DNA of 64,000 nucleotides from an uncultured Clostridia bacterium (GCA_934130595.1 CAKOYF010000008.1:2229-66228); one strand, 5' to 3'. Positions 163 to 62,205 are shown, counted from the first letter of the stretch. Program-made: numbers and translations. The notes: a model not told the origin generated them from the sequence alone.

Positions 163-564
163 ATGCAAGAACAATATTATAATTTACCTATGGTAAGAGA
201 AAACTTTTTCTCAAGAAATTTAAAAAAACTTTTTCAAGGTTTCTTTAATATAAAAAGAAAAAAGAGAGACCAAAAAAGAGCAAGTATATTAGCTCAAAGA
301 GCAAAACTTAATAAAAATTCTACAGATACAGTGGCAGTTAGTGGAGTTCATCAAAGAGTAGATATATATGAGTTCCAGTCAATGTATAGAAGAGGAGAAA
401 TTTCCATTGAAAATATGAATGAAGATCAAAAATATGCGCTAATTAAGCTATTTGAAATGCAAAATGAAAGACTAAGAGCAAGCATACAAGAGCATAGAAA
501 GAACACAGAAGCATATAACATGGAAGTTGAAAGATTAAAAAAAGAATTAGATATAATAGGATAG
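163..564 (+). CDS. small helical protein, paralog of the C-type small proteins at 9709, 12958 and 59396
   Basis: ATG lies 5 nt after AGGAGG; 133 aa. YEFQSMYRRGEISIENMNEDQKYALIKLFEMQNERL aligns with the Y..I.EI...I..DI.(E/D)ED...L..L(F/Y)..E motif of the other three. A terminator follows. Confidence 0.6.
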   Translation: MQEQYYNLPMVRENFFSRNLKKLFQGFFNIKRKKRDQKRASILAQRAKLNKNSTDTVAVSGVHQRVDIYEFQSMYRRGEISIENMNEDQKYALIKLFEMQNERLRASIQEHRKNTEAYNMEVERLKKELDIIG

Positions 565-5017: not shown

Positions 5018-5040
5018 CAAAAAAGGCTAGCAAATTGCTA
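5013..5040 (+). terminator. intrinsic terminator
   Basis: GGCTAGCAA / TTGCTAGTC stem followed by TTTTTT. Confidence 0.8.
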
Positions 5041-5148
5041 GTCTTTTTTATATTTTAAAATAAATATTTATGTGCTTTATATACTTAAATTTAAGTTGCA
5101 AAATGCGCGTCTTAGTAATATAATATTATAAAAAAGGGAGCGTAAAAT

Positions 5149-6543: not shown

Positions 6544-7776
6544 ATGGATGAAATACGTATAGCTAATAAAATAAAAAGTATTGGTGGAAAACTATATCTT
6601 GTTGGAGGAGCAGTACGAGATGAATTAATGGGAATATATCCACAAGATAAAGACTATTGTGTAACTGGAATATCTAAAGAGGATATAATAAAATCTTTTC
6701 CCGAAGCTAAAATAGTAGGAAAAGATTTTCCAGTATATATAATAGATGGATGTGAAGTAGCTCTTGCAAGAAAAGAACATAAAATAGCTAATGGATATAA
6801 AGGATTTGAAGTTGAAACATCAAAAGAAATTAATATAGTTGAAGACTTAAAAAGAAGAGATATAACAATAAATGCTATAGCTAAAGATATTTTAACAGAA
6901 GAAATAATTGATCCATTTGGTGGAATACAAGATATAAAAAATAAAATAATAAGAAGTGTTAGTAGTGCTTTTAAAGAGGATCCTTTACGTGTATATAGAG
7001 TAGCTAGATTTGCAGCAAAATTAGATTTTACTGTGGAAAAAGATACAATATATATGATGAAAAGCCTAAAAAATGAAATGAAGTATATAACTTCTGAAAG
7101 AGTATACGAAGAATTAAAAAAGGCACTTCAAACAGATAAACCATCTATATTTTTTAACATATTAAAGCAAGCAGGTGTTTTAGATGTACATTTTAAAGAG
7201 GTATATGATTTAATAGGAGTAGTTCAACCACAAAAATATCATCCAGAAGGTGATGTATATGCACATACAATGATTGTATTAGATAGTGTTTCTAAAAACA
7301 CACCAGATGTGAGTGTAAGGTTTGCAGCTTTAGTACATGATCTAGGTAAAGCTAAGACTCCTAAAGAAATATTACCACAACATATTGGACATGATGAAGC
7401 TGGAGTAGAATTAGTGGTAAATATGTGCAATAGACTAAAGCTTCCTACATTATGGAAAAAAAGAGGTATTGAAGTTTCAAAATATCACATGAAGGCAGGA
7501 ATATACTCTGGTATGAGACCATATAAAAAAGCTAAGTTTTTAAATATGCTAAATAGGACAAGCATAGGAATAAAGAATATGGAGTATATAGTAGATGCTG
7601 ATGATATGTTAAAAAGACCTAAAATCAGCATGTCTAATACTGCAAACATAATATTTAGCCGTGTAAATGGAAAGTCAATGATAGATAAAGGTATATCAGT
7701 AGAAAAAGTTGGAAAAGATGAATTTTTAAACAAGCTATATGAAGAGCAAGCAAAGATAATAAAAGAAATAGAGTAG
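6544..7776 (+). CDS. cca: CCA-adding tRNA nucleotidyltransferase with HD domain
   Basis: 410 aa; GGAVRD and RRDITINA polymerase-beta motifs; HD motif VHDLGK. Confidence 0.85.
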   Translation: MDEIRIANKIKSIGGKLYLVGGAVRDELMGIYPQDKDYCVTGISKEDIIKSFPEAKIVGKDFPVYIIDGCEVALARKEHKIANGYKGFEVETSKEINIVEDLKRRDITINAIAKDILTEEIIDPFGGIQDIKNKIIRSVSSAFKEDPLRVYRVARFAAKLDFTVEKDTIYMMKSLKNEMKYITSERVYEELKKALQTDKPSIFFNILKQAGVLDVHFKEVYDLIGVVQPQKYHPEGDVYAHTMIVLDSVSKNTPDVSVRFAALVHDLGKAKTPKEILPQHIGHDEAGVELVVNMCNRLKLPTLWKKRGIEVSKYHMKAGIYSGMRPYKKAKFLNMLNRTSIGIKNMEYIVDADDMLKRPKISMSNTANIIFSRVNGKSMIDKGISVEKVGKDEFLNKLYEEQAKIIKEIE

Positions 7777-7786
7777 AGGTGGATAT

Positions 7787-7942
7787 ATGGAAAAGAACAA
7801 AATTTTGAAAAAAATGATTGAAGACTTAGGAAATGTTACACAAGAGGAGATTGAAAAAGAAAAAGAGTATAAAGTATTAAAAGAAAGTGAACCTATAGAA
7901 TTTCTTGAAGCTTTAGTAGATTCAGAAGATGAAAAAGAGTAG
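7787..7942 (+). CDS. small acidic peptide (A-type, module copy 1), 51 aa
   Basis: Not in the ORF track (under 60 aa). ATG 7787 follows an AGAGGTGGA RBS; stop TAG 7940-7942. NVTQEEIEKEKEY..EPIEFLEALVDSEDEKE parallels the 45-aa ORF at 10156. Confidence 0.45.
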   Translation: MEKNKILKKMIEDLGNVTQEEIEKEKEYKVLKESEPIEFLEALVDSEDEKE

Positions 7943-7952
7943 GTGAAGTTAT

Positions 7953-9728
7953 ATGGCAAAGATTCAATTAACAAATGAAGAAAAAATAGTAAAGAAATAT
8001 TATGAAGAATTTGTAAGTAAAAGAAGAATAACAAGTATTTCTAAAAAAGAAGTTATAGAATTTTGTAATAACTATGCTAAAGAAGTATTAAAAAATACAA
8101 GATTTGAAAATGAGGTACTAGAGATAAAAGATGAAACTAGTAAAGGCGTTGCTGGTAGTATGGCTACAGCAGAAAACGGAAAAGCGTCAACTTTAAAAAT
8201 AAACTTTGAAGAGGTAGTAGGAAAAAATGGTTTTAAATCTAGAAATAAAGATGCAAAATTTAAAACTTTTGTAGAACTATTAGACACTTTAAATCATGAG
8301 ACTCAACATTATTTTCAAACAAAAGAAATACAAAATTTTAGAATCACAGCTAATGGCATGAAACTTTCAACAGGAATGGAAATTGTAAGAGAAAATATAG
8401 CATCTGCTGTAGAAAGAGATAAGTTTTATAGCTTAGAAGAAGGAAACTATAGTGACTTATATATAGAAGGTGATGCTAGAAGAAATGGAGCTATAAAAAC
8501 ATCAACTCAGCTACTAAGAATATTTCCTAAATTAGAAAGAAGTAGAAAAGAAACACTAATAAACAGAGTAGTAAATTCTATTGAAAGAGATAATGTAGAG
8601 TTTAATAAGCTAAAATATGATGGTAGTACACAAAAATATGATAGAGGAGACGTTACTAGTGCATATGTAGATGAATATATTGCATATAAACCAGAAAGTT
8701 TAGAGAGAAAAAAGTATAGTGTTTTAGCTTTTGAATATGGAGAAGATGGAAGTAGGTACTATTTTGATGAAGTGCTAAATATTAGAGATGATATATATGA
8801 AACTATAAAAAATAACAAAAAGATAACACCGGAAACTAGAAAAAATATGTATGAACAAGTGGATTCTGGTTTCTCACAGATTCTATATAATTCCTTAATT
8901 AGATCTAGTAAAGAGACAATAGTAGACATTCGTAGAAGAATTGGAGATAAAAGATTCATTAAAGAGCTAGATTACATACATGAAGGAAAGAAAAAAGAAA
9001 TTGCAGAAAAAGTTCAAAAATACAGACAGTATGATGAATTCTTTATGAAAAATAGAGATAAATTATCACAAAGAGGATTTAGTAAAATAGAAGAAAGACT
9101 AAATAAACTATATGCTAGTACTAAGTATGTTATCAAAAAAGATGAGTTAACAGGAGAAGAATACGATACAATTGAATCAGACCAAATTAAATTTCTTCAA
9201 AAATTAGGAGCAAAAATTATAGATACAAAAGGAAAATATCCAATGTTTACTCCTGAGGAAATAGAAGAAAATGATTTAAAAAGAAAAGAACAAAAAGCAA
9301 AATACAAAGAACAGATGAAAAGGGAGTTTGAGCAAAGAAAATTCGAACAATGCAAAAAAAGAGAAGCAAGAGAAAGAGCAATAAAAGAATTTAATAGACG
9401 TGAACATGCTAGAAAAATGAAAAATCCAATATATAGATTTGCATATAATATAAGAAAAACGATGGAAAATTCTAAAAGGAAAAAATTACCTCAAGGAGTT
9501 ACTCAAAATAAATATTTAGAAGAAGATTTAGTTCAAAAAAGAGATGAATTAAATCAATTAACTAATAGTAAAGATAATCTAGAAACTAAATATACAGACA
9601 TTCAAAAGGAAGCAGAAGAATTAATTGTAGAAGCTGAAAGTAAAGCATATCTAGATAAACAAGAAGTAAGAGAAAATGAAAAAAATATAAAAGAGGAGGA
9701 ACAAAATATTGGAAAAGGAAATATCTAA
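7953..9728 (+). CDS. large K/E-rich hypothetical protein (B-type, module copy 1) with HExxH motif
   Basis: 591 aa; AGGTGAAG RBS; no signal peptide. LNHETQHYF lies in the N-terminal globular part. The C-terminal 250 aa are lysine/glutamate-rich and coiled-coil-like. Confidence 0.8.
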   Translation: MAKIQLTNEEKIVKKYYEEFVSKRRITSISKKEVIEFCNNYAKEVLKNTRFENEVLEIKDETSKGVAGSMATAENGKASTLKINFEEVVGKNGFKSRNKDAKFKTFVELLDTLNHETQHYFQTKEIQNFRITANGMKLSTGMEIVRENIASAVERDKFYSLEEGNYSDLYIEGDARRNGAIKTSTQLLRIFPKLERSRKETLINRVVNSIERDNVEFNKLKYDGSTQKYDRGDVTSAYVDEYIAYKPESLERKKYSVLAFEYGEDGSRYYFDEVLNIRDDIYETIKNNKKITPETRKNMYEQVDSGFSQILYNSLIRSSKETIVDIRRRIGDKRFIKELDYIHEGKKKEIAEKVQKYRQYDEFFMKNRDKLSQRGFSKIEERLNKLYASTKYVIKKDELTGEEYDTIESDQIKFLQKLGAKIIDTKGKYPMFTPEEIEENDLKRKEQKAKYKEQMKREFEQRKFEQCKKREARERAIKEFNRREHARKMKNPIYRFAYNIRKTMENSKRKKLPQGVTQNKYLEEDLVQKRDELNQLTNSKDNLETKYTDIQKEAEELIVEAESKAYLDKQEVRENEKNIKEEEQNIGKGNI

Positions 9729-9939
9729 AGAAAAATACGAGAACATAAAGGAAATAAAAAATAAATGGGATAATAAAGAAATAGATATTACAGATATTCC
9801 AATAGAAGACAGAGAGCTATTAGTTAAACTATATGATATTGAAATAAAAAAGGTAAAAAATGAAATAGAAGAATTAGAAAATAAGATAGATAATTATAAA
9901 AAAAGAATGCAAGACGCAATACAATCTTTAAAGAAATAA
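9709..9939 (+). CDS. small helical protein (C-type, module copy 1)
   Basis: TTG start 9 nt after an AGAGGAGGA RBS, overlapping the last 20 nt of the upstream gene. 76 aa; YENIKEIKNKWDNKEIDITDIPIEDRELLVKLYDIEI and NYKKRMQDAIQSL match the 12958 ORF. Confidence 0.65.
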   Translation: MEKEISKEKYENIKEIKNKWDNKEIDITDIPIEDRELLVKLYDIEIKKVKNEIEELENKIDNYKKRMQDAIQSLKK

Positions 9940-9948
9940 TTAGATAGT

Positions 9949-10018
9949 AATAAAGAAAGAAAATTTGAAGTGAACCTTAAAAAGTGTACTTTAATTTATT
10001 CTTTCTTTATTTTTTTTA
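9949..10018 (+). terminator. putative terminator (long-loop hairpin)
   Basis: Perfect 13-bp AT-rich arms AATAAAGAAAGAA / TTCTTTCTTTATT with a 37-nt loop, then TTTTTTT. Confidence 0.4.
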
Positions 10019-10155
10019 TGTATATTACAATGCAGCTCAAGGTAGAAATCAACATAAATTTAACATTTATTAGCCAATATAAATATATTTAATTGTATAA
10101 TTTACTTTTTTATGGTAGTATAGAAGTATAGTATATAAAAAAGTGGAGGAAGTAT

Positions 10156-10293
10156 ATGAAAGATATAGATTATAAAAAAATTACTCAAGAAGATATAGAT
10201 AAAGGAAATAAATATTCAAAAGAGATTGAATATAGTCCATTAGATTTTGTAAAAGATTTATTTGAAGATAATAAAAAAGAAAAGGGTGAGTAA
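10156..10293 (+). CDS. small acidic peptide (A-type, module copy 2), 45 aa
   Basis: Not in the ORF track. ATG 10156 follows a GTGGAGGAAG RBS; stop TAA 10291-10293 lies 5 nt before the next start. ITQEDIDK...SPLDFVKDLFEDNKKE parallels 7787. Confidence 0.45.
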   Translation: MKDIDYKKITQEDIDKGNKYSKEIEYSPLDFVKDLFEDNKKEKGE

Positions 10294-10298
10294 TTAAT

Positions 10299-12995
10299 AT
10301 GGTTAGATTAAACAATGTAGAATCAGCAATGAAAAGGTTTTTAGAAATTGCATTAGACAATGAAATGGACAGGTATCAAAAAGAAGACCAACTTAATAGA
10401 AGCCTCGCAAATTTTGTAGATGAGACAATAAAGAAAAATTCTAATTTGGGAGAAAATACTCCTAGTGCAACAATAGATATAAAAGATGGTCATAGTACAC
10501 TTGCAGCAGGAGATCTTTTTCAATTAGAAATAGATTATAATGAATTTTTCAAGTCTAAAAATATTGAAGAAAAAATTGGAGATTTGTATAGCTTCTTTGC
10601 AGATGTAAATGATAGCATATATTATGCATATAAAGAAGATAAATGCGAAAACTTTGTATCTACAGAAAAAGAAAATGAGATTATAATAAATTCAGAGTAT
10701 GCCAAAGAAAAGATTACAGGCGGAAATAGAAGACTATCCTTGCAAACAACAGAAAATGCTCATCTTTTAACAATTACTCAGGCAAATAGGGTTGTATCAT
10801 CTTTAAACTTAAAAGACTATATTAAAGATGTTAAAGATGAAGATGTTGAAAGAATAAAAGAAGATTACAGAGATAGAATTGTTGAAAATGCTAAAGGGAC
10901 AATAGAGAAAATTGCAGATGAGTCTGGAAGAGATTTTGAACCAGAAAAAATAGTTTTAGATGATGAAGAACTATTCTTAGATCCTGCAGATACAGCAATA
11001 ATAGCAAATCCTGAATTAATAAAAAGATATCCTGTATTAAAACATGAATATAATGCAGATGGCTCTAGAAAAGAACTAGATGAACTTTTTGAAAGTGAAA
11101 AAAGTGAACTAGCAAGCATTGAAGAAAATTTAAGAGATAATGACAAAACAAAAAACGAATTAAAGGCACAAATAAAAAAAGCATATGCAAGCCTTAAATA
11201 TAAGTCATTTATTGATGCACTTCAAGAACCAGAAAAATTAAGAGATGTTGTACAAAGAGTTGGACCAGAAGAGGTATTAAACCAACTTACAGATATGGCA
11301 GCTAATATAAAAGATCAAAACAGACTTGAAGATAGTGTAGAAGACAAAGCTATAAAATACTTTAATCAAAAAGAAGCTGATACTATTTATGGCTTTAGTG
11401 ATAAAGCAATGGAAAACTTCATGGAGATGCTTGAAACAATTGAGCAAAGAAGAGAAGTAGAAGATAAAACAGTAGAAGCTATAAATGGTAAAAAGCAAAA
11501 GTTCCAAGATGAGATAATAGACGCATTGAAAAAAGAGCTAAATGATATCTCAAAACAAGTAGAAAGATATTCAGATGACGAAGTTAAAGAGGCAGATGAA
11601 GAAAGAAAAAAAGATAGAACAGGAATATTAACTAAAATAAAGAATTACTTAAAAAATAAAGAAAAAGAAAATACTCAAGAAGAACCTAAAAAAGAACCGC
11701 AAACAGATGTTGAGCCAAAACCAGATAAAGAGCCTCAAGAAGAACCAACTAAACATAAAGAAACAGATACTTCTAGCAGTCAAAATAATAAGGGAGAAAA
11801 AGGCGATCCTGGAAAAGATGGCCCAAAAGGAGATAAAGGTGATCCTGGTGAAAAAGGAGAACAGGGGGAACCAGGAGAAACTGGACCAAAAGGTGAACCT
11901 GGAAATGATGGTAAAGACGGCAAAGATGGTGAGCCAGGTAAAGACGGAGAGCCTGGTAGAGATGGTAAGGACGGAAAAGATGGCGAGCAAGGCCAGCCAG
12001 GAAAAGATGGAGAACCTGGAGGAAATACATACGTATACCACATTTATCAAAAAGACAAAGAAAAAGATATTTCAGAAGATGAAGAAAAAAACAAAGATGA
12101 AGAAAAAGAAACTGATGTAGATCCAAAGCCAAAAGAGCCAACAGATAACAAGGATGTTGAAGTAAAAGAACCTACAGTAGAACCAGTGACTGAACCTGTA
12201 CCAGATGAAAAAATAGAACCAGTTGAAGAACCTAAGGAAGATAAAAATGTAGAAATAGATTCAGAAGTTGAACCAGAAACTGAACCAAAATCTGAACCTG
12301 AAATTGAACCTCAAACTCAAGTAGAACCTGAGCCAACAGAAAATACAGTTACAGAAGATGAAAAAGATTTAGAGCAAGATAATACAGAAGTTACTATAGA
12401 AGATGAAACTACAGTACAAGAAAATCCTGTTGAAGACGAGGCTCCAAAAGTAAATGAGGAAGAACAAGCTACACAAGAAATCAAAGAGGATGAGCAAATA
12501 TCAGAAACTCCAAAAACAGAAAAGCAAATGCAACAAGAAATAATAGAATCTTTAATTAATCATTTAGAAGAGAATAATAGAAATGAGCTAGAAAAATATG
12601 AACAAGAACTAAATCAAAAAGTAGATGATATTATAGATAAACTAGATGTTAGTAAATATTCAATGGAAGAATTAGCAAAAGCTAAAGAGCATTTAGAACA
12701 AAGAGTAAAAGAAGATGTAGAAGCTAAAAGAAAAACACAACTTGAATATTTAGATCAAATAAAAGAATCTATGTATGGTCAAGTTGCAAGACAAGAAAGA
12801 ATACAAGAATTAAATGCTTTAATAGAAGAAAAGGCAGAATTAGTAAGAAAAATCAAAGAAAAAGATGTACTTATTAAATCAATAGAAAATGATACTGCTA
12901 AATCTTTAAAAGAAGTTGAAGATGAAATTAGTAAATTAGAAGAGGAAAGAAATAGTCTTGAAAATAAAAAGGGGGAAGGAACAATTGGTAGATAA
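10299..12995 (+). CDS. large collagen-like repeat protein (B-type, module copy 2)
   Basis: 898 aa; GGGTGAG RBS; no signal peptide. The N-terminal globular part is followed by K/E-rich helices, 25 G-X-Y triplets, E/P-rich spacers, and a C-terminal coiled coil. Confidence 0.85.
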   Translation: MVRLNNVESAMKRFLEIALDNEMDRYQKEDQLNRSLANFVDETIKKNSNLGENTPSATIDIKDGHSTLAAGDLFQLEIDYNEFFKSKNIEEKIGDLYSFFADVNDSIYYAYKEDKCENFVSTEKENEIIINSEYAKEKITGGNRRLSLQTTENAHLLTITQANRVVSSLNLKDYIKDVKDEDVERIKEDYRDRIVENAKGTIEKIADESGRDFEPEKIVLDDEELFLDPADTAIIANPELIKRYPVLKHEYNADGSRKELDELFESEKSELASIEENLRDNDKTKNELKAQIKKAYASLKYKSFIDALQEPEKLRDVVQRVGPEEVLNQLTDMAANIKDQNRLEDSVEDKAIKYFNQKEADTIYGFSDKAMENFMEMLETIEQRREVEDKTVEAINGKKQKFQDEIIDALKKELNDISKQVERYSDDEVKEADEERKKDRTGILTKIKNYLKNKEKENTQEEPKKEPQTDVEPKPDKEPQEEPTKHKETDTSSSQNNKGEKGDPGKDGPKGDKGDPGEKGEQGEPGETGPKGEPGNDGKDGKDGEPGKDGEPGRDGKDGKDGEQGQPGKDGEPGGNTYVYHIYQKDKEKDISEDEEKNKDEEKETDVDPKPKEPTDNKDVEVKEPTVEPVTEPVPDEKIEPVEEPKEDKNVEIDSEVEPETEPKSEPEIEPQTQVEPEPTENTVTEDEKDLEQDNTEVTIEDETTVQENPVEDEAPKVNEEEQATQEIKEDEQISETPKTEKQMQQEIIESLINHLEENNRNELEKYEQELNQKVDDIIDKLDVSKYSMEELAKAKEHLEQRVKEDVEAKRKTQLEYLDQIKESMYGQVARQERIQELNALIEEKAELVRKIKEKDVLIKSIENDTAKSLKEVEDEISKLEEERNSLENKKGEGTIGR
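11793..12023 (+). repeat. collagen-like G-X-Y triplet array (25 uninterrupted triplets)
   Basis: GEKGDPGKDGPKGDKGDPGEKGEQGEPGETGPKGEPGNDGKDGKDGEPGKDGEPGRDGKDGKDGEQGQPGKDGEPGG, read in the frame of 10299. Confidence 0.9.
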
Positions 12996-13233
12996 TGATT
13001 ATAAAAGAATAGAAGAAATAAAATTAGGTATAGATAATAATACAATTTTACCTGATGATATATCAGATGAAGATTTACCACTTGTTAATGCTCTTTTTAA
13101 GTATGAAGTGTTTTTAGCAAGAGATGAATTGAAAAAGAAAGATGAAATCTTAAATGATTATAAACAAAGAATGCTTAATGCTATTGAATATTTAAGAAAT
13201 AAGAATACAAATAGCAGTCCAAAAACAACATAA
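12958..13233 (+). CDS. small helical protein (C-type, module copy 2)
   Basis: ORF overlaps the end of 10299. The likelier start is TTG 12985, 5 nt after GGGGGAAGG. YKRIEEIKLGIDNNTILPDDISDEDLPLVNALFKYEV and DYKQRMLNAIEYL align with 9709. Confidence 0.6.
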   Translation: MKIKRGKEQLVDNDYKRIEEIKLGIDNNTILPDDISDEDLPLVNALFKYEVFLARDELKKKDEILNDYKQRMLNAIEYLRNKNTNSSPKTT

Positions 13234-13256: not shown

Positions 13257-13285
13257 TTGACAAAATTAAATACAGCGTGTATAAT
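13257..13285 (+). promoter_or_regulatory. sigma-A-type promoter of the ylxM-ffh operon
   Basis: TTGACA (13257-13262), 17-nt spacer, TATAAT (13280-13285). Confidence 0.65.
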
Positions 13286-13320
13286 ATGTGTAAAGTTTAA
13301 AAGCTTTACACATTTTTTTA
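13286..13320 (+). terminator. intrinsic terminator of the upstream module, abutting the ylxM promoter
   Basis: ATGTGTAAAG / CTTTACACAT 10-bp stem with an 8-nt loop, then TTTTTTT. Confidence 0.65.
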
Positions 13321-21498: not shown

Positions 21499-22347
21499 AT
21501 GAGCGAAAAGGACCTAGAAAAGCTAGAAAATAGTAGCGTTAGTAATAGAAGTGGAAATATAGATGAAACTAAAAAAGAAAAAACAAAAAAGAAAAGCGTG
21601 TTAAGTAATATTATCTCTATAATTATTCTTTTGGCGTGTATTGCAGGACTTATATATTCTGGAAGTAAACTATATAATTGGGTTATGAATAATATAAAGA
21701 GTAATAAAGTAATTACACAAATTAATGATATAGCTGGTGTTTCAGATATTACCAAAGATGAAAATCCAGGAGCAGAATTTGGACTAAATTTTGAATCGTT
21801 AACAGCATATAACAGTGATATAGTTGGATGGATTAGAGTACCAGGTACATCAATTAGTTATTCTTTAGTACATGCAGAAAATAATAACAAGTACTTAAGA
21901 CATTCAATTGATGGAACATATAACGAATTTGGATGGCCATTTTTAGACTATAAAAACACACCAGATTTCACAGATAAAAATACAGTAATATATGGGCATA
22001 ATATAGTTAGTGGATTAATGTTTGCAGATCTTTCCTACATATACAATGGAATATTAGGAAATGATGTTGAAATAGATATATACAGAAAAGATTATAGATT
22101 GTTAAAATACAAAGTATTTTCAACATATATAACAGATCCAGAATCATATTATCTAACAACATATTTTTCAAATGATGATGCATACAGTACATATTTAAGT
22201 ACAATGATGTCAAGAAGTGTTAGAAACTTCAATCAAACAGTTGGAGTAGATGATACAATATTAACACTTTCAACTTGTACATCTGATGCTAAAAGAAGAA
22301 TAGTAGTGCAAGCAAAATTAGTTTCAAATACAGAAATGCCTAGATAA
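21499..22347 (+). CDS. class B-like sortase
   Basis: 282 aa; N-terminal TM anchor; YGHN...G.MFADL; catalytic TLSTC; distal RR.VV. Confidence 0.85.
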   Translation: MSEKDLEKLENSSVSNRSGNIDETKKEKTKKKSVLSNIISIIILLACIAGLIYSGSKLYNWVMNNIKSNKVITQINDIAGVSDITKDENPGAEFGLNFESLTAYNSDIVGWIRVPGTSISYSLVHAENNNKYLRHSIDGTYNEFGWPFLDYKNTPDFTDKNTVIYGHNIVSGLMFADLSYIYNGILGNDVEIDIYRKDYRLLKYKVFSTYITDPESYYLTTYFSNDDAYSTYLSTMMSRSVRNFNQTVGVDDTILTLSTCTSDAKRRIVVQAKLVSNTEMPR

Positions 22348-30183: not shown

Positions 30184-30259
30184 GGGCGCTTAGCTCAGTT
30201 GGGAGAGCATCTGCCTTACAAGCAGGGGGTCACAGGTTCGAGCCCTGTAGTGCCCACCA
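30184..30259 (+). tRNA. tRNA-Val(UAC)
   Basis: Hand-folded cloverleaf: acceptor GGGCGCT/AGTGCCC, anticodon loop CTTACAA, T-loop GGTTCGAGCC, encoded CCA. Confidence 0.92.
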
Positions 30260-30269
30260 CTTATTTATT

Positions 30270-30346
30270 GGCCTGGTAGTTCAGTTGGTTAGAACGCTAG
30301 CCTGTCACGCTAGAGGTCGTGGGTCCGAGCCCCATCCAGGTCGCCA
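30270..30346 (+). tRNA. tRNA-Asp(GUC)
   Basis: Acceptor GGCCTGG/CCAGGTC, anticodon stem CTAGC/GCTAG with loop CTGTCAC, encoded CCA. Confidence 0.92.
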
Positions 30347-30367
30347 CTTTTTTTTTACCGATTTTTC

Positions 30368-30443
30368 GGTCAGATAGCTCAGTCGGTAGAGCAGGGGACT
30401 GAAAATCCCCGTGTCGGGGGTTCGATTCCCTCTCTGACCACCA
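30368..30443 (+). tRNA. tRNA-Phe(GAA)
   Basis: Acceptor GGTCAGA/TCTGACC, anticodon stem GGGGA/TCCCC with loop CTGAAAA, T-loop GGTTCGATTCC, encoded CCA. Confidence 0.92.
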
Positions 30444-35752: not shown

Positions 35753-35828
35753 GGGCGCTTAGCTCAGTTGGGAGAGCATCTGCCTTACAAGCAGGGGGTC
35801 ACAGGTTCGAGCCCTGTAGTGCCCACCA
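35753..35828 (+). tRNA. tRNA-Val(UAC)
   Basis: Identical to 30184-30259. Confidence 0.92.
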
Positions 35829-35838
35829 CTTATTTATT

Positions 35839-35915
35839 GGCCTGGTAGTTCAGTTGGTTAGAACGCTAGCCTGTCACGCTAGAGGTCGTGGGTCCGAGCC
35901 CCATCCAGGTCGCCA
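35839..35915 (+). tRNA. tRNA-Asp(GUC)
   Basis: Identical to 30270-30346. Confidence 0.92.
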
Positions 35916-35936
35916 CTTTTTTTTTACCGATTTTTC

Positions 35937-36012
35937 GGTCAGATAGCTCAGTCGGTAGAGCAGGGGACTGAAAATCCCCGTGTCGGGGGTTCGATTCCCT
36001 CTCTGACCACCA
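35937..36012 (+). tRNA. tRNA-Phe(GAA)
   Basis: Identical to 30368-30443. Confidence 0.92.
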
Positions 36013-36025
36013 AAATATAACTTAT

Positions 36026-36101
36026 GCGGGAATAGCTCAGTTGATAGAGCGCTGCCTTGCCAAGGCAGAGGTCGCGGGTTTGAGCCCCGTTTCCCGCTCC
36101 A
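36026..36101 (+). tRNA. tRNA-Gly(GCC)
   Basis: Acceptor GCGGGAA/TTCCCGC, anticodon stem CTGCC/GGCAG with loop TTGCCAA, encoded CCA. Confidence 0.9.
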
Positions 36102-36192
36102 TTTTTTATATTTATAAAATGTTATTTATGACATTTTATTTTTTTAGAAAAATTGTGAATAAATTTAACATTTTATAATATAATTTACTAAT

Positions 36193-36266
36193 GGCAACTT
36201 AGCCAAGCGGTAAGGCACGGGTCTGCAACACCCTGATGATCGGTTCGACTCCGATAGTTGCCTCCA
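36193..36266 (+). tRNA. tRNA-Cys(GCA)
   Basis: Acceptor GGCAACT/AGTTGCC, anticodon loop CTGCAAC, T-arm ATCGG-TTCGACT-CCGAT, encoded CCA. Confidence 0.88.
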
Positions 36267-36451: not shown

Positions 36452-39400
36452 ATGGAAAATAATACAAGAAAAAAGAGCATTAGTATAATAGTAATAGGAA
36501 TTATACTAACAGCGATAATCTTTAATAAAAATAACATAATATATAATGTTCAGAATATAAAAAATAATAATGCAATGGCAACTAATTATGATAATGTAAC
36601 AGATTTTCAAAATGCTAGATGGAAAGAAATACAAAATAATATTTTTGGAGAAAATGTAGCTGGTTCTGTTACAGATACAGCCTTAGCAACTGCAAATGTT
36701 GTTCAAGGAAACCAGTATTTTAATTGGGCAAGTTTAGACAGTAAAACTATAATGCCTTGGGATGGTAGTAAGAACAAAAGTGATGGTACTGAATATACTG
36801 ATGCTGATTTTTATAATAACGGAGCGTTAGAGGAAGAAACTGTAACCTATACTACTACAATTACAGAAGGAGTAAAAAGCACTAGAACAGTAAAATATCA
36901 AGTATACAATGTATATAATGCTAACCAATTAAGATACGTTTTAGAAAGTAAGGCATCAACGCAAGAAAATAAAAAGATATATATAAGAAATGATATAGAT
37001 TTAGCCGGATATAATAATGTTTTATGGAGCTCTATTTCTGTAAATAATGGTGAAATGTATATTGAAGGAAATGGACATACAATATACAATTTAAATTCTA
37101 ATACTAGTGGTATATTTTCAACAATAAATAGCTATATGACAATATTAAATTTAAATATAGAAAATATAAAAATAGTGTCTGGACGTGATAGTGTATCTCC
37201 TTTAGGACAACCTAATGCAAAAGGAATAAGATTTGAAAATGTACATGTAAAAAGTGGATTTATTCAATCATCTGCAAGTAATGCGGCTGGATTCATGTCA
37301 AGACCACACTCAGTAAATGCTTTTGTAAAAGATTGCTCATCTTCAAATTTGTATTTGTATGGAGCAGGTGAGCATACATCTGGATTTAGTGGATGTATAT
37401 GTCCTTCTCAAGCAGGAAATGGTGGCGGATATGGCGTAAAATATACAGTAGATTATCCCGAGCAACCAGAAGCACTGTTTGGAAATAACTCTACATCTTT
37501 AAATACAGCAAGTTCTAAGTATCCGTTTTATATATTAGATTGCTATTCTATAGATTGTGAGATATTTGCAACTAAAGGTCATGCTGGTGGACTTATTTCT
37601 TGTATAGATAGTGGTATTATATGTAAAAATTCTTTCTCTAACAATTCAATTTATGGTGAAGGACAAGTTGGTGTAATAATGGGCTGTCAAGTCGCAGCTT
37701 CAAAAACACCATTATATGATGATTCAAATAAACAGACAGTTAACTGCTACTTTGAAAACTGTTATTCATCAGGAGTTGTTGAAGGAAAAAATGCAATTGG
37801 CGGATTTATGGGTGCAGATAATGACACCGCAGCAGCTACTATATATAAAAATTGTTATTCAACATCTATGGTTGGAATGGATTATTCTGGAAACAAGGTT
37901 GGAGGATTTATTGGAGAAACAACTAATACTGCAAGTACAACAATAGAAGGATATGGCACAGTAAAAGGTGTTCTTATGATTAACTGCTACGCAGCAGGAG
38001 AAGTAGGAAATATAAGTACTTCTACAGATTTAAGTGTTGCTAAAAGTAAAAGAATCGGTGGATTTATGGGTTCATATTCAAGTGTAGATTACTTAAATAT
38101 TTTTAATTGCTTTTATGATAAACAAACTACAGCTATGAGAAAAGTTGCAGTTGGACTTGAGGGTAATAATGGTACATGTCAATTAAAAGGATTAACAGGT
38201 GTATATACTAAATCATCTGAGCTAAAGAATGTTCAAGGATTAACAGATGTAGATATGCAAGATGGAAGTGCTTGGCTATATAGAACTGGGTATTATCCAC
38301 AACTAAGAATTTTTACGGATTTAGCATTAGATAATTTTAGCAATAATGAATTAGTAGAGAGTTATTCTACAGCATCAGCAGCAACTGTATTCCTAAATCA
38401 TTGGGATACACTAATGAATGAAAATGGAAATATAGAAAATAATAAAGAGTCAGCAGATATATATGACACTATTAGAGACATAACTTCATCATTTGAGTTT
38501 ACAAGTAATGGAAATTCAAACTCAGCTGGATATGATTTAACATGGGAAGTAGATAGTGAAACAAATAAAATAAAAGGATACGTTGAAAAACTAAATATAA
38601 CTCAAGAAGATGGTTCAGTAAAAGACGTGTCAGTGCTATCTATTAAAAATCCTGTAAAGAACAAAACAGATAGTGCAAACTTTGGATTAGATGTATCAGA
38701 CATATATAAGTGTTATGATTTCGCACCAGGAAAATCTTGGGTAAAGATAATCGTTGAAAATACATTAGGAAATAATGTAATAGGAACAAGAAAACTAAGA
38801 CTTTTACCTACAGCATATATAGACGCAGGTAATTATACAGAAATTTCACTTGTAACAGATAACGACAATAGTGAAGATGTTACACAAAATAAAGTAAAGA
38901 TAGATGGAATAGATGAAATACAAAATAGCTATTTCCATGCTCAAGACACAATGTATGTAATAACTGATTCAGATAAACTTGCAGATAATAAAGTTGTTTA
39001 TCCAGGACAAGTAGTATCTCAAAATAAATCTGAAACAAATCTATTTGCTTTGTGGAATAGATATCCTTCAGATTTAAATTCAACACAAGCAACAAGTAAA
39101 AAATTTGATAAAATGTATGCTCAAGCTTTACTAGGTAATTCTAAAGACAGCGGGTTAGCTAAAGTTGAAGTATATAGCTTAGGAGTTGCATATCGTTCTA
39201 TTCAAACAGATGATGGAGAAGTAACAGTTCCTGTAATAAATTATGATGAAGAAAAAAGAATAACATCAGATGCATTAAATGATCAAAAATGGAGAGGTGA
39301 AAAACTCTTTACGACAGAAGATGCTGGATGGTATGAATTAAAATATTACTGGAGATTAAAAGATGGTAGATATCTTACAGATAGCAAAATTGTTGTAATA

Positions 39401-42400
39401 AAAGGCAATGAAATATCAGCAACATTAAATAATAATATAATTAAAGGTGAACAAGACTATAATGATGAAAATTTAAAAATTACCCCAGATATAAAACAAA
39501 ATACAGAAAATTTTGGAGACTTAAAAATAGATTATGCAAGACAAGAAGAAGAAAAAAGAAATGTAAAAACATCAATTAATGAAAATGGTACTGTTGAAAA
39601 AAGTATAAAAATAAGAGAATTTGTAGATGATGAATTAATAGCTGGATGGAAAAATGATGATAGGTATACACTAAAAGAATTAAAGGTGGAAATTAGTAGA
39701 GATGGAGCAGCTTGGGTAAGCCTTCCAATAAATTTAGAGGATTCTAGTGAAGCACAATATACTTACGCAAATCAAAACTGGCAAGTAAAACAATATACAG
39801 ATACTAAACAATATTATATAGATCCAACAGGTGACCCTATAGAAATAACACTAAATGCTAAACTAATAAAAGATCCAAGTACAGAAAATGATTATGTAAA
39901 ATTTAAATTTACATCAGATAGTGAAGAGACAACAGATCTTGTAACAAATAGTAACATTAGAGTAACTGCTACTTTTGTTCCTGTAGATAAAATAAAAGTA
40001 GATAAAAAATGGGAAGATGATGCAAATAAAGAAGGCTTAAGACCAGAAAACATAACTTTAGTTTTAAATGGTAGTGATGGAAGTAGTTATACTCAGCAGA
40101 TAAGCGGAGATAGTAATACAGATATAAATTGGAGTTATACTTTTGAAGTACCTAAGTATAGTGAACAAGAACAGGAAATATCATATACTTTAGATGAAAA
40201 AAGCACTTCAGATATATATGAAAAACAAATAGATGAATCTAGCAATACAATAGTAAACAAGATAATAAAATATAACATTAAAACCAAAGTTGATGGTATT
40301 GGAGGAAGTATTTCTGGACAAAATCAAGACTCATATGAGGAAGTAGTAAAAGGACTTGATTCTACCAAAGAAATTGTAATAACTCCGGATGATGGGTATG
40401 AAATAGAAAGTATAAAAATAAATGGAGTAGAACAAGAACTACCAAATAAAAGAGATCAAGAATATACATTGCCAATACTAAAGAATGTAACAGAAGATAA
40501 AGAAATAATTGTAAAATTTAGAGAAAATAGAGTAAATATTAATGTAACTAAAAAATGGGTAGATAATGAAAATGAAACATTAAAGAGGCCAACAAATATA
40601 AAATTAGTAGTAAAAAATAAAGAAGAAGTAGTAGCTCAAACTGTAATATCAACAGAAAATGATACACAAAGCTATACATTCCAAAACTTACCTAAATATG
40701 ATAACGAATCAAAAGAAATTATATATACAATAGATGAAGAAGAAGTAAATAGTGGCGATTTAAAATTTTATACTAAGCAAATAAATGGAAGTACAATAAC
40801 AAATACATTTACAGTTCCAGATGAAAAGGTAAATGTAGATTTCAAAAAAGTATGGCAAGATAATGAAAATGAGAACAACAAACGACCAACAAGCATAATA
40901 GCACAAGTAAAAAAAGGAACTGAAGTAATAAAGAGTGTTACTTTAACTGGAATTACTAGTACATGGAATTATACATTTCAAAACTTACCTAAATATGATA
41001 GCTTAGGCAATGAGATAACATATGAAATAGATGAGCAAGAAGTAAATGAAGGCGAGTTAAAATTCTACCAAAAAAATATAGATAATAGTACTAACACAAT
41101 AACTAATATATTTACAGTTCCAGAAGAGTATATAGAAATCATATCTCAAAAAGAATGGAAAAATGAACCAAATACTAATAAAAGACCTCAAAGCGTTGTA
41201 ATACAAGTAAAAAATGGAGGAAGTGTAGTAAAAGAACAAGAAGTAAGTGCAGATACTGATTGGAAGACTACTTTTAATGGGTTACCAAAGTATAACTTAC
41301 AAGGAAATGAAATTACTTATACAATAGATGAAAAAGAAAAGGATACTGATGACCTTAAATTTTATGAAAAGGCTATAAATAATAGTACATATACAATAAC
41401 CAATACATTTAAGGTACCAGATGAAAGAGTTGAATATCAAGTAATAAAAAAATGGGAAGATAATTCAAATATTGCTAAAAAAAGACCACAAAATATAATA
41501 GTAGATCTATATTCTAATGGAAAGGTTATAAGAAATCAACAAATAGCTACATTAGAAGATGAAAATACATATACATTTGAAGATTTACCAAAATATGATG
41601 AAAATGGTGAAAGTATAAAATATACAGTAGATGAAAGAGAAACAAATGAAGGTGAATTGTATTTTTATAATAAGAGTATAAATGGAAATATAATAACAAA
41701 TACATTTACAGTTCCAGATGAAAAAATAAATGTAGAAGTTAAAAAGATTTGGAATGATAATTCTAATGAACATCAAAAAAGACCTGAGTCTTTAAAATTA
41801 GTACTAAAAAGCGGTGAAAAAGTAGTATCACAAAGTACAATACAGACAAATGGAAATCAGCAAGTATATGAATTTAAAGATTTAACTAAATATAATGAAT
41901 TAGGAAATGAGATAAAATATACAGTAGATGAAGAAGAAATAAACGAAAATGACTTAAAATTTTATACTAAAGAGATAGATAATGCTACAAATACAATAAC
42001 AAATACTTTTAAAGTGCCAGAAGATAAGGTAAATGTTGTAGCTAAAAAGGTTTGGCAAGATGATAGTAATGCATCAAAGAAAAGACCAAAAAGCATATAT
42101 TTAGATTTATATGCAGATGGTAAAAAACAAGTAAGTCAACAAATAACAACTTTAGAAGATGAAAATATATATACTTTTGAAAATCTAGCCAAGTATAATG
42201 AAGCTGGAAATGAAATAAATTATAGTATAGATGAATCAGAAATAAATGAAAATGATTTAAAATTTTATACTAAGCAAATAAATGGCAATACAATAACAAA
42301 TACATTTACAGTTCCAGATGAAAAGGTAAGTGTAACAATTGTAAAAAAATGGGTAGATAACTCTAATGAGAATAATAAAAGACCACAAAATTTAAAATTA

Positions 42401-45400
42401 GTCGTAAGAAAATCTGGAGAAGAAGTTGCTAGTCATGTAATTACAACTGAAAATGATGAAGAAAGATATATATTTGAAAATCTTCCTAAGTATAATGAAC
42501 AAGGCAATGAAATAAATTACACAATAGATGAAGAGGAAGTAAATGATGGAGACTTAAACTTTTATACTAAACAAATAAATGGTGAGACAATAACAAATAC
42601 ATTTACAGTTCCCGCAGATAAAGTAACATTAAAGGCATCTAAAACATGGAATGATAATAATGATTTTGCTAAAAAAAGACCAAACAGTGTAATTGTGGTT
42701 GTTTTAAATGGAGAAGAACAAGTACAAGAGAAAACTTTAAATGAATCAAATGATTGGAAATGCTCATTTAAAGATTTACCTAAATATGATAGTAATGGAG
42801 CAGAAATAAAATATACATTAGCTGAAAAAGAATCTACATTAGGAGATTTATACTTTTATGAAACTGAAGTGGATAATACAAATATTAAGTTAAAAAATAC
42901 TTTTAGAGTTCCAGATGAAAAGGTAAGTGTTCCTGTAACAAAAATATGGGAAGACAATTCAAATGTAGCTCAAAAAAGACCGAGTAGCATCATAATAGAC
43001 TTATATGCTGATGGAGTCTATAGCAAGAGTTATACAATATTAGATACATCTAGTGATACTCAAAATTATACTTTTGAAAATTTACCTAAGTATAATGAGT
43101 TAGGAGATGTTATAACTTATACAGTAAATGAAAGAGAAGTAAATAAAGAAGATCTGAAGTTTTATTCTAAAAATGTAAATGGTTATACAATAACAAATAC
43201 ATTTACTGTACCAGATGAAAAAGTAAGTGTTCCTATAACAAAAATATGGGAAGATAATTCAAATGCAGCTCAAAAAAGACCTAACAGTATTCTATTAAAA
43301 TTATATGAAAATGGTAAATTTATTAAAAATTATGTTTTAACTGATACTAAATTATCAGATACACAAAGTTATATTTTTGGAAATCTTGCAAAATACGATA
43401 GCTTAGGAAATGAAATAAGTTATACAGTAGATGAAGAAGAAATAAATGAAGGAGATTTAAAATTCTATTCAAAAGAGGTAGACAACACTACTAATACACT
43501 AACAAATAAATTTGTTGTGCCAGAAGAAAAGACATCATTTACAGTTACTAAAATATGGAATGATGATAACAATAAGGCTCAAAAAAGACCTAATAGTATA
43601 CTATTTGAATTATATGCAAATAATTCATACGTTAAAGAATATTTGTTAACAAATACTAACGTAAATTCTCAAAGTTATACTTTTGAAAATCTTCCCAAAT
43701 ATGATGATTTAGGAAATGTAATATCATATACAATAGATGAAAAAGAAGAAAATGAGGGAGACCTTAAATTTTTTTCTAAAAATATAAATGGAAATGTAAT
43801 AACAAATACATTTAGAGTACCAAGTGAAAAAATAGATATTACAGCTAAAAAGATATGGAGCGATAATAGTAATAAAAATAACAAGCGTCCTACTAGTATA
43901 ACTTTAGATTTATATGCAAATGGTGTATATAGTCAAAGTACAACTATTCAAAATGTAAAAGATACTGATAGTCAAACATATACTTTTAGTGGACTATTAA
44001 AATATGATAGTTTAGGTAATGAAATAAATTATACAATAGATGAATCAGAGACTGCAGTAGGAGATTTGAAGTTCTACACAAAGAGCATAGATAATTCTAA
44101 TAAAACAATAACAAATAGCTTTACAGTTCCAGATGAAAAAGTTAGCTACACAGTAACAAAAATATGGAATGACAATAACAATAAAGCACAAAAGAGACCA
44201 AGTAGTATAGATATAATATTAAAAGCAAATGAAAAAGAGTATAAAAGAGCAACAATTGAAGTTTCTAGTAGTAGTCAGCAAAATTATATATTTGAAAATT
44301 TACCAAAATATAACCAATCAGGAGATGTTATAGTATATTGGGCAGATGAGGCAGAAACTAAAACAAGAGATTTGTATTTTTATACTAAAAACATAGATGG
44401 TAATGTAATAACTAATACATTTAATGTGCCAGACGAGAAGATAGAATGTCAAGTTACTAAAAAATGGGTAGACCAAACACCATTAAGAAGACCAGATCAA
44501 ATTAGATTGGTATTAAAAGATGAGTTGGGTAATAAGGTAGATAAAACACTATTAAATACTCAAAATGACTCTAGTGTTCAAACATATATATTTAAAGAAC
44601 TAGCTAAATATGATGAGTTAGGTAACTTAAAAAAATATACTGTAAGTGAAGAAGAAGTAAATACAAATGATCTTTATTTCTATAATTCAAGTGTAGATGA
44701 AAGTACAAATACCATAACTAATACATTTGTGTTACCAGAAGATAAGATTGATATAAATGTAACAAAGGTATGGGATGATAATGACAATAAAGCAAGAAAA
44801 AGACCATCAAGCATTATAATACAAATTAAAAATGGAGATAAAGTAGTAAAATCTCAAAAAGTTACAGCTTTAATGGAGTGGACTTTTAATTTTACTGATT
44901 TGCCAAAATACGATGAAGTAGGAAATGAAATAGCATATATTATAGATGAAGCAGAAGTAAATGTAGATGATTTAAAATTCTATAAGAAAACTGTAGACTA
45001 TGATACAAACACTATAACAAATACTTTTTCAATACCAGAAGAGCAAACTAGTATCACTATAACTAAAACATGGGAAGATGAAAAAGATAAATATGCTAAA
45101 AGACCAGAAGCAATATTAATAGATGCTAAAAATGGAACTGCTGTTGAAAAGACTTATGAATTGTCTAAAGATAGTACAGATGATGAAATATGGACAGCTC
45201 AAATAGATGGATTATCTAAATATAATGAAAATGGAGATATAATAAGATATACAATAGATGAAAGAGCTAAAAAAGCAGGAAGTTTATTACCATATACAAA
45301 ACAAGTAAAAGGATATAATATAACAAATACTCTTAAGTTTTATAATATAACTACTCAAGTTGATGGGGATGGTGGAAGTATATCAGGACAAGATGAAGAT

Positions 45401-62196: not shown

Positions 62197-62205
62197 GTGG
62201 AAATT

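Follow-up and report, generated by a model that had tools for sequence, protein, structure and literature searches.

An ancient tandem duplication of a three-gene module in uncultured gut Clostridia, with a putative zincin-like protein and its predicted pseudo-enzyme paralogue

In zincins and gluzincins a set of strands is followed by a helix carrying HExxH and then by a helix carrying a Glu. The Glu-helix motif is ExxA(D/N/E) in the families M48, M78 and M34, and in M34 a Tyr stands 6 residues before the Glu. The peptidase domain of flagellinolysin is a gluzincin. Among collagen-like proteins, the number of triplets in BclA is polymorphic between strains, and the replacement of whole cassettes within a conserved frame is the pattern of surface-antigen cassettes. 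Flagellinolysins have been described as proteolytic flagellins (PMC5595980), and BclA forms the trimeric collagen-like filaments of the exosporium nap (PMC10470788). Here we describe a locus that recalls all of these and is found in a 64,000-nucleotide stretch of DNA from an uncultured Clostridia bacterium (GCA_934130595.1, CAKOYF010000008.1:2229-66228; G+C ~28%), which as a whole we call the window. It consists of two adjacent copies of an uncharacterised module made of a small acidic peptide (A), a large protein (B) and a small helical protein (C). The duplication of this module is real, conserved and ancient.

The open reading frame (ORF) listing places the six genes, A1-B1-C1 and A2-B2-C2, where the initial annotation of the stretch had put them (Table 1). 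That annotation had proposed a tandem duplication of a three-gene unit, and BLASTP, hidden Markov models (HMMs) and hhalign gave paralogy for all three pairs. Within the window, BLASTP aligned B1 with B2 at E=5e-8, C1 with C2 at E=7e-9 (35% over 66 amino acids, aa) and A1 with A2 at E=1e-5. The profiles of the B1 and B2 families were matched by hhalign over 437 columns with a probability of 100% (E=3.3e-40). Searching 3802 six-frame ORF fragments, an HMM built from A1 alone recovered all the A2 ORFs (E 2e-7 to 6e-3), the sole extra match being the A peptide of a distant locus, L013. The A2-only HMM recovered the A1s at 7e-15 to 8e-5, and the C1-only HMM recovered all the C2s at 5e-17 to 2.5e-9. 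We found no DNA-level repeat between modules 1 and 2; this rules out a recent DNA duplication and indicates that the event is old.

The small ORFs are genes. The A and C proteins were conserved in every relative when orthologues were aligned, and A1 and C1 are annotated as genes in hundreds of public contigs. The A1 alignment is summarised by (D/N)(F/L)xx(I/V/L)T(Q/E/D)E(E/D)I(E/D)...Y...(E/Y)..(I/L).(D/E)(L/F)(L/V)(K/E)A(I/L)V(E/D) and that of C1 by Y.RI..IK..F(E/D)...I...DI..(E/D)D......Y..(E/Q)I.........I..YK.RM..AI..L. Among six strains of the species of the window, the ratio of non-synonymous to synonymous polymorphism (pN/pS) was 0.29 for A1, 0.08 for B1, 0.20 for C1, 0.09 for B2 and 0.23 for C2, and A2 was invariant, indicating that all parts of the module are under purifying selection within this species. 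Together with the family HMM and hhalign tests, the conservation and the pN/pS values rule out chance similarity and non-genes. The mechanical ORF of C2 opens at 12958, but its start was moved to 12985, where both the orthologue alignment and the gene calls (82 aa) of five contigs from the same species place it. The C1 orthologue in L002 has an ATG at the aligned start position. Besides, a conserved 133-aa protein lacking a Pfam match (window 163-564; L001 2005-2406; L007 160-564) was matched weakly by the C-family HMM (E 7e-5 to 5e-4), which probably reflects coiled-coil composition rather than homology.

The modules sit between murD-cca and ylxM-ffh-rpsP-khpA-rimM-trmD. We found the double module in the same slot, from murD(/cca) to ylxM-ffh, across all eight related genome types examined. 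The comparison covered L001, L002, L004/5/7, L006, L008, L009 and L010 plus five conspecific contigs; the L006 contig breaks off past C1, where just the beginning of another gene is left. In L001 and L002 cca is missing at the locus. In one sublineage an extra 199-aa gene with a weak RyR-domain match lies between C2 and ylxM, in L004 (12812-13411), L005 (10557-11156) and L007 (13411-14010). In five genome types by our count (L004/5/7, L006, L009, L010), the A1 peptide is an in-frame C-terminal extension of a CCA-adding-enzyme-like protein (L004 5953-7374, L006 6614-7990, L009 3725-5095, L010 6584-7987; the window counterpart spans 6544-7942). The fused protein has 456-473 aa versus 410, and an internal Met has the AAGAGGAG sequence, which resembles a ribosome-binding site (RBS), just upstream. 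A1 is a separate ORF in the window, L001, L002 and L008. The difference could be due to a fusion or fission of genes, or to a nested start.

The distribution of the module is very narrow. Of 185,579 GTDB species genomes, only 4 have a relative of B1, and all four are metagenome-assembled genomes named 'uncultured Clostridia bacterium'. An exhaustive HMM search found just 56 members of the B family among 1.84 billion protein cluster representatives, and the C family comprises 99 clusters (0 with a Pfam domain). The species of the window is present in human-gut metagenomes, Hadza among them. A, B1 and C had no match in Pfam, NCBIfam, PHROGs, PADLOC or PDB sequences, and we found no relatives of A, B1 or C in IMG/VR, GenBank phages or plasmids. 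The initial annotation had recognised no family for A, B or C; this holds for A, B1 and C, B2 being matched only through its collagen run.

A survey of gene neighbourhoods for A-B-C co-occurrence, which had been suggested as a check, gave the fixed slot in the relatives and a B-C linkage in distant loci. In L013 the order is A-B-C with an 11-nt overlap. L015 has two small genes, then B and a 63-aa C (C HMM 7.5e-13), and in L011 the order is C, a small gene and B. Because the small peptide upstream of B differs among subfamilies while the B-C linkage persists, B and C appear to be the conserved core. Two further distant B homologues, P0059 and P0068 (L014 3273-4385; L017 326-1435), each have a gene for a YkuD-type L,D-transpeptidase as direct neighbour, which could be due to shared contig ancestry or to a functional link with the cell wall.

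The N-terminal domain of B carries the signature of a zinc peptidase. The B1 orthologues share the invariants N114-H115-E116-x-x-H119-x-x-Q122, F158-Y159, G164-N165-Y166 and E172-G-D174-A175-R176. Both HExxH and ExxA[R/N] are kept in 36 of the 44 members of the B family, down to 16-20% identity, and both are lost jointly in 7 of the 44, all B2-like and including the B2 of the window, where N-D-S-I-Y-Y stands in the place of HExxH. Six residues ahead of E172 there is a nearly invariant Tyr, Y166; its likeness, with E172-x-x-A, to the Glu-helix motifs of M34 and M48 is a lead, not a test. An AlphaFold2 model of B1(1-352), made with the 44-sequence alignment, had a predicted local distance difference test (pLDDT) value of 94.3 and a predicted template modelling score (pTM) of 0.91. 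Along the chain it presents two helices, strands 56-60, 68-71 and 79-83, helix 99-127, helix 170-190 and a helical subdomain. HETQH sits in helix 99-127, which the three strands precede, and E172, the candidate third zinc ligand, begins helix 170-190. The spacing from HExxH to the Glu is 52 residues, with a helix inserted. From these motifs and this model we read the N-terminal domain of B as a zincin-like family that is new and very divergent. Most likely B1 is catalytic, an active zinc metallopeptidase, with zinc binding and proteolysis that we infer. By its residues at these positions, B2 is a predicted pseudo-enzyme. The best conserved motif of the B family, P.L..EYN.DG(S/T)(R/K)K, lies in the helical subdomain and is kept by B1 and B2. 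Since the catalytically degenerate B2 retains it, the shared function of this subdomain would not be catalysis.

Some structural leads were discarded. MATCAP, a metallopeptidase, appeared as a fold match with a probability of 0.25-0.30 and a template modelling (TM) score of 0.2, too weak to be used. The profile search against PDB sequences returned coiled-coil noise and a ferritin match at E=0.09 only, and the fold search with full-length B1 returned nothing but helical-repeat and designed-protein noise.

Beyond this domain the two B proteins diverge. They had been described as a globular N-terminus followed by K/E-rich coiled coil. The N-terminal domain is confident in B1, but the rest of the description is incomplete for B2, which is not simply K/E-rich coiled coil and carries a collagen-like run and an acidic spacer. 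In the tail of B1, helices are predicted at 434-489, 492-509 and 523-587, and there is a conserved basic motif, H.RKMKNP(L/I)YR..YN. The composition of the B2 C-terminal tail and the tail of B1 suggest that the former is helical or coiled-coil too. The Gly-X-Y run of B2 matched PF01391 with E=1.3e-15 (57 bits, cut-off 27) and, partially, the NCBIfam models for SclA/SclB/Lcl (1e-8 to 1e-10). B2 has 875-905 aa among the six strains of the species, and all the indels fall either in the Gly-X-Y run, as 1-4 whole triplets, or in the charged Glu/Pro/Lys-rich spacer. The triplet register is thus kept, which fits a real triple helix, since this requires it. In L001, L002 and L004/7 the collagen run of B2 comprises 8-21 triplets. 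Four ORFs of 87-137 aa that cross the collagen region of B2 in antisense or in the +1 frame (11649-12050, 11707-12120, 11773-12141 and 11780-12043) were read as by-products of the Gly-X-Y codon periodicity and not as genes. No signal peptide or hydrophobic segment was found in B1 or B2 (maximum KD19 0.74), so that the B proteins lack not only signal peptides, as first reported, but also membrane segments.

The cassette changes much faster than its neighbours. Between species, Ffh is 93-98% and MurD 73-90% identical, versus 42-70% for B1 and 41-83% for C1, and B2 is only 25-37% identical, one close pair excepted. The most telling comparison is that of L001 and L002, which are effectively one species: MurD is 99%, Ffh 100% and the flanking DNA 98.4% identical over 4.4 and 4.6 kb. 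Their cassettes (L001 7810-13188, L002 4417-9907) have ~66% DNA identity where alignable, and the proteins are 46% (B1), 51% (C1), 42% (A2) and 32% (C2) identical. The order of the modules is reversed as well, A2-B2-C2 coming first in L002, and a second, independent contig (L003) confirms this order. On the left the breakpoint coincides with the murD stop codon. On the right it falls within the last C gene, in its conserved 3' end, and this position suggests that recombination ran through the conserved segment. A cassette that outpaces its neighbours and is swapped as a whole between conspecifics points to diversifying selection.

The three genes of each module are tightly arranged. The gaps from A to B range from -1 (TAATG) to 12 nt. 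At 15 of the 16 B-to-C junctions examined, GGAGG is found 7-10 nt before the start of C, inside the final codons of B, with an overlap of 11-20 nt, as had been noticed for the strong RBSs and overlapping C starts of the window. In the sixteenth, module 2 of L008, the start by our reading is the next ATG, with an identical RBS. Most C genes start with TTG, and in several relatives the aligned codon is ATG. By these signals C is translationally coupled to B.

Promoters and terminators come from consensus scans only. The promoter at 5096 is the probable start of a transcript for murD, cca and module 1. Between it and 13286 the scan found no terminator (through cca, A1, B1 and C1), therefore module 1, which comes after cca, is probably co-transcribed with murD-cca, in agreement with the initial annotation. 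Copy 2 had been given its own upstream region and an end at the 13286 terminator; the scan recovered both the terminator and a promoter-like site before A2, a weak one given that the region as a whole has fewer such sites than shuffled sequence. The ylxM-ffh promoter ends one base before the terminator hairpin. Because its transcript would start within the 5' arm, the hairpin would not terminate it. In the relatives the segment with this promoter and the terminator (13257-13313) is conserved, and gene callers there sometimes take it as an N-terminal extension of ylxM.

Table 1. Features of the double module and its transcription signals, in window coordinates
Feature	Position	Strand	Remarks
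Terminator	5019-5049		Precedes murD promoter
Sigma-70-like promoter TTGCAA-17-TATAAT	5096-5124	+	Ahead of murD
A1	7787-7942	+	51-aa acidic peptide, isoelectric point (pI) 4.5; ORF listing, orthologue alignment, HMM
B1	7953-9728	+	591 aa, basic, pI 9.1; putative zincin-like N-terminal domain, then long helical tail
B1 N-terminal domain, aa 1-352	7953-9008	+	AlphaFold2 model
B1 HETQH, aa 115-119	8295-8309	+	HExxH motif, invariant among B1 orthologues
B1 EGDAR, aa 172-176	8466-8480	+	ExxA[R/N] at helix start; candidate third zinc ligand
B family motif P.L..EYN.DG(S/T)(R/K)K, B1 aa 255-270	8715-8762	+	B1 version YSVLAFEYGEDGSRYY
B1 C-terminal tail, aa 434-591	9252-9725	+	Three long predicted helices, 47% charged
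RBS AGAGGAGGA of C1	9692-9700	+	Within final codons of B1
C1	9709-9939	+	76-aa helical protein, TTG start, 20-nt overlap with B1
Promoter-like site TTAACA-18-TATATT	10060-10089	+	Within 216-nt gap before A2
A2	10156-10293	+	45-aa acidic peptide, pI 4.9, A1 paralogue
B2	10299-12995	+	898 aa, very acidic, pI 4.5; predicted catalytically degenerate B1 paralogue
B2 part homologous to B1 residues 4-461	10302-11654	+	hhalign
B2 DSIYY, aa 105-109	10611-10625	+	At HExxH position, HExxH lost; ExxAR equivalent lost too
B2 collagen-like run, aa 499-576	11793-12026	+	26 uninterrupted Gly-X-Y triplets; Pfam PF01391
B2 acidic spacer, aa 577-745	12027-12533	+	Pro/Glu/Lys-rich, low complexity, pI 4.05, EP-x-x repeats
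B2 C-terminal tail, aa 746-898	12534-12992	+	Proline-free, 44% charged
RBS GGGGGAAGG of C2	12971-12979	+	Within final codons of B2
C2	12985-13233	+	82-aa C1 paralogue, TTG start, 11-nt overlap with B2
Sigma-70 promoter TTGACA-17-TATAAT, perfect consensus	13257-13285	+	For ylxM-ffh; abuts terminator
Intrinsic terminator, hairpin and T-run	13286-13313	+	End of double-module unit; conserved in relatives

How could such a module work? Each copy would yield a translationally coupled, equimolar set of three proteins synthesised in the cytoplasm. B would be the core, a zincin-like domain fused to a long helical tail, with the Glu of the downstream ExxA[R/N] as the third zinc ligand. B1, which keeps all the catalytic-type residues, would act as a zinc peptidase, and the B2 of this genome would have gained a stalk folded as a collagen triple helix, followed by an acidic Pro/Glu spacer, and, because of this stalk, would form an elongated trimer. 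C may be a dedicated small helical partner that binds or caps the C-terminal helices of B, and A, made just before B, may be a chaperone or an inhibitor of the N-terminal domain. The charges of B1 (pI 9.1) and B2 (pI 4.5) are complementary, and a basic, enzymatic B1 and an acidic, structural B2 are plausibly subunits of one elongated assembly. Such an assembly would be exposed to diversifying selection at the cell or spore surface, in contact with phage or host. The A-B, B-C and B1-B2 contacts and the location are the parts of this scheme that we infer. As a whole, this reading of the locus as a zincin-like B1 and pseudo-enzyme B2 with helical or collagen-like tails and small partners, forming an elongated assembly under diversifying selection, is put forward tentatively, our confidence in it falling a little short of even. 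The structural or assembly role imagined at first (spore surface, scaffold or appendage) may hold: a stalk with variable triplet numbers and a hypervariable cassette fit a fibrous, exposed structure.

Several of our results weigh against this reading. Regarding the peptidase, Foldseek gave no significant match of the B1 domain in the PDB (best E 0.15, TM ~0.2), and B1 matched none of the characterised peptidases in Pfam, NCBIfam or PDB sequences. The top 50 of BFVD contained 8 SprT-like models, 2 IrrE, 1 M48 and 1 'zinc-binding metallo-peptidase', but these zincin matches are local (90-200 residues, the shortest SprT-like at a root-mean-square deviation of ~3-6 A) and individually non-significant (E 0.3-1). 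Regarding the fibre, the collagen run is absent from the B2 of L008, L009 and L010 and is therefore not essential to the module. Homology between the tails of B1 and B2 was not detectable by hhalign (probability 2.4%) although their C partners are homologous, and because of this the idea that C1 and C2 recognise one conserved tail motif is unsupported. Of the 34 largest ORFs of the window, a 64-kb sample that is uninformative for the genome, we scanned the 30 that lie outside the module and the named flanks, and these included no sporulation, secretion or flagellar/appendage family. Within the window's own species (six strains) the cassette changes very little and evolves under purifying selection. 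Finally, the location in a row of housekeeping genes behind a sigma-70-like promoter fits an intracellular role equally well.

One more specific possibility is a fibrous surface structure of an unknown type, on the cell or the spore and assembled without a Sec signal. B2 would be a spacer or adhesin, B1 an enzymatic head and A and C chaperones, the cassettes being exchanged under phage or host pressure like those of S-layers or flagellins. In this detailed form we consider it unlikely. About as doubtful is a spore-surface version (exosporium nap or appendage), with B2 as a BclA-like filament coming from the mother cell, B1 as a spore protease and A and C as assembly or anchoring partners. Assembly in the mother cell would explain the missing signal peptide of B2, and the combination of this absence with a collagen-like run, the triplet-number polymorphism between strains, which resembles that of BclA, and the hypervariability of the cassette all speak for it, as does the gene for the sporulation protease YabG (Peptidase_U57) found 3.4 kb from the distant B homologue of L015. 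However, Pfam and NCBIfam revealed neither similarity to the N- and C-terminal domains of BclA nor any other exosporium family, 0 of the 30 scanned ORFs matched a sporulation family, three relatives do without the collagen run, and the locus stands behind murD-cca, where the promoter is sigma-70-like and no sporulation promoter is obvious.

The same genomic position invites a different explanation, a protease complex or scaffold inside the cell with a housekeeping or regulatory task. B1 would then be a regulatory metallopeptidase of the cytoplasm, its basic tail possibly binding to nucleic acid or to the envelope, B2 would serve as a pseudo-enzyme with a regulatory role, and A and C would act as modulators. 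A fixed slot among essential genes (murD, cca, ylxM-ffh-rpsP-rimM-trmD) in every relative, the lack of export signals, the strong purifying selection on B1 within the species and the fusion of A1 to the C-terminus of cca in five genome types agree with such a complex. It would be unusual, though, for one to show 25-46% identity beside neighbours at 93-100% and to be swapped as a cassette within a species, and the B family is limited to a tiny clade. Besides, no intracellular regulatory role is known for a collagen triple helix or a Pro/Glu spacer. We regard this explanation as improbable, to the same degree as the spore surface.

A conflict system, either anti-phage defence or a toxin/antidote pair with a protease effector and small acidic proteins as inhibitors, is very unlikely. 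A hypervariable cassette between conserved core genes, a protease-like effector domain beside a degenerate paralogue and small acidic co-translated partners would be expected from it, but none of the six proteins had a PADLOC match below E=0.04, which rules out a known defence system. All clade members carry one fixed locus instead of a patchy distribution, there is no integrase or other mobile-element marker nearby, no phage or plasmid relatives were found, and collagen and spacer regions are atypical of defence effectors. A prophage remnant, that is, a tail-fibre or tape-measure-like protein with its assembly chaperone downstream, is effectively refuted: a large fibrous protein with a small coupled gene does resemble fibre/chaperone pairs, and the collagen run of B2 matches PHROG tail-fibre families (best 1.1e-17), but these matches are confined to the Gly-X-Y run (aa ~490-578), B1, A and C had no meaningful PHROG match and none of the proteins matched a phage tape-measure/chaperone family, IMG/VR, GenBank phages and plasmids hold no relative, and core genes are syntenic on both sides with no other phage genes.

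Elsewhere in the window we observed a 3250-aa surface protein with 17 Cna_B repeats and MucBP and SpaA domains (36452-46204) and a sortase gene (21499-22347); a similar giant adhesin is found upstream of murD in L006, L008 and L010. A 318-aa protein (62197-63153) gave a full-length match to the helical domain of the 5-hmdU DNA kinase (PF18723, E=1.7e-102). This family comes from phage thymidine hypermodification and is unexpected in a chromosomal stretch. The tRNA triplet Val(TAC)-Asp(GTC)-Phe(GAA) appears twice, at 30184-30443 and 35753-36266, 5.6 kb apart and with identical Rfam scores, the second copy being followed by tRNA-Gly and tRNA-Cys.

The locus adds three protein families (A, the B N-terminal domain and C) that have no entry in Pfam, NCBIfam, PHROGs, PADLOC or the PDB. 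The domain of B joins a very confident predicted fold, with no global match to solved structures, to the catalytic signature of a zinc peptidase. B1 and B2 would make a clean natural pair of enzyme and pseudo-enzyme in which the dead copy acquired a structural collagen stalk, and their cassette has the behaviour of a variable or antigenic locus, in a bacterium of the human gut. If the products are exposed at the surface, uncultured gut Clostridia would have a new route to display a protease together with collagen-like fibres; if they are intracellular, this would be an unusual use of the collagen triple helix.

The locus consists of new families assembled from known kinds of parts. As in SprT/Wss1-like proteins, ImmA/IrrE (M78), M48 and M34 (lethal factor and PPEP-1), the N-terminal domain of B1 is predicted to have HExxH in a long helix after a small beta-sheet, and, as in M48, M78 and M34, a downstream helix that opens with a Glu, here in an ExxA(R/N) context. 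It differs from gluzincins in its size (~350 residues), the extra helical subdomain, the 52-residue spacing and the lack of a significant sequence or fold match, and in B it is fused to a helical or collagen tail of 150-550 residues. The resemblance to flagellinolysin is in concept only, a metallopeptidase domain in a helically polymerising protein of Clostridia. B lacks the flagellin N- and C-terminal domains (Pfam), no flagellar genes are nearby, and its peptidase-like domain is N-terminal instead of inserted and unrelated in sequence.

As for the small partner, C is coupled directly downstream of a large elongated protein, like the small helical partners in FliC-FliS, FliD-FliT and phage tail fibre-Tfa. 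C (76-91 aa) had no match to these chaperone families in Pfam, NCBIfam or PHROG. Neither A, B nor C matched WXG100 or LXG in Pfam, the C alignment has no conserved W-x-G, and no family of the type VII secretion system was present among the window ORFs scanned. The stalk of B2 is placed differently from those of BclA and the streptococcal Scl1/Scl2: it lies between a 450-residue head with the predicted dead zincin domain and, past the acidic spacer, a charged proline-free tail, and it is missing in some orthologues. B2 has neither the LPXTG anchor nor the signal peptide of Scl1/Scl2, and no N-terminal anchoring segment or C-terminal globular domain like those of BclA was detected in it with Pfam and NCBIfam. 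With BclA it shares the lack of a signal peptide, and with both BclA and Scl1/Scl2 the uninterrupted Gly-X-Y run whose number of triplets varies between strains.

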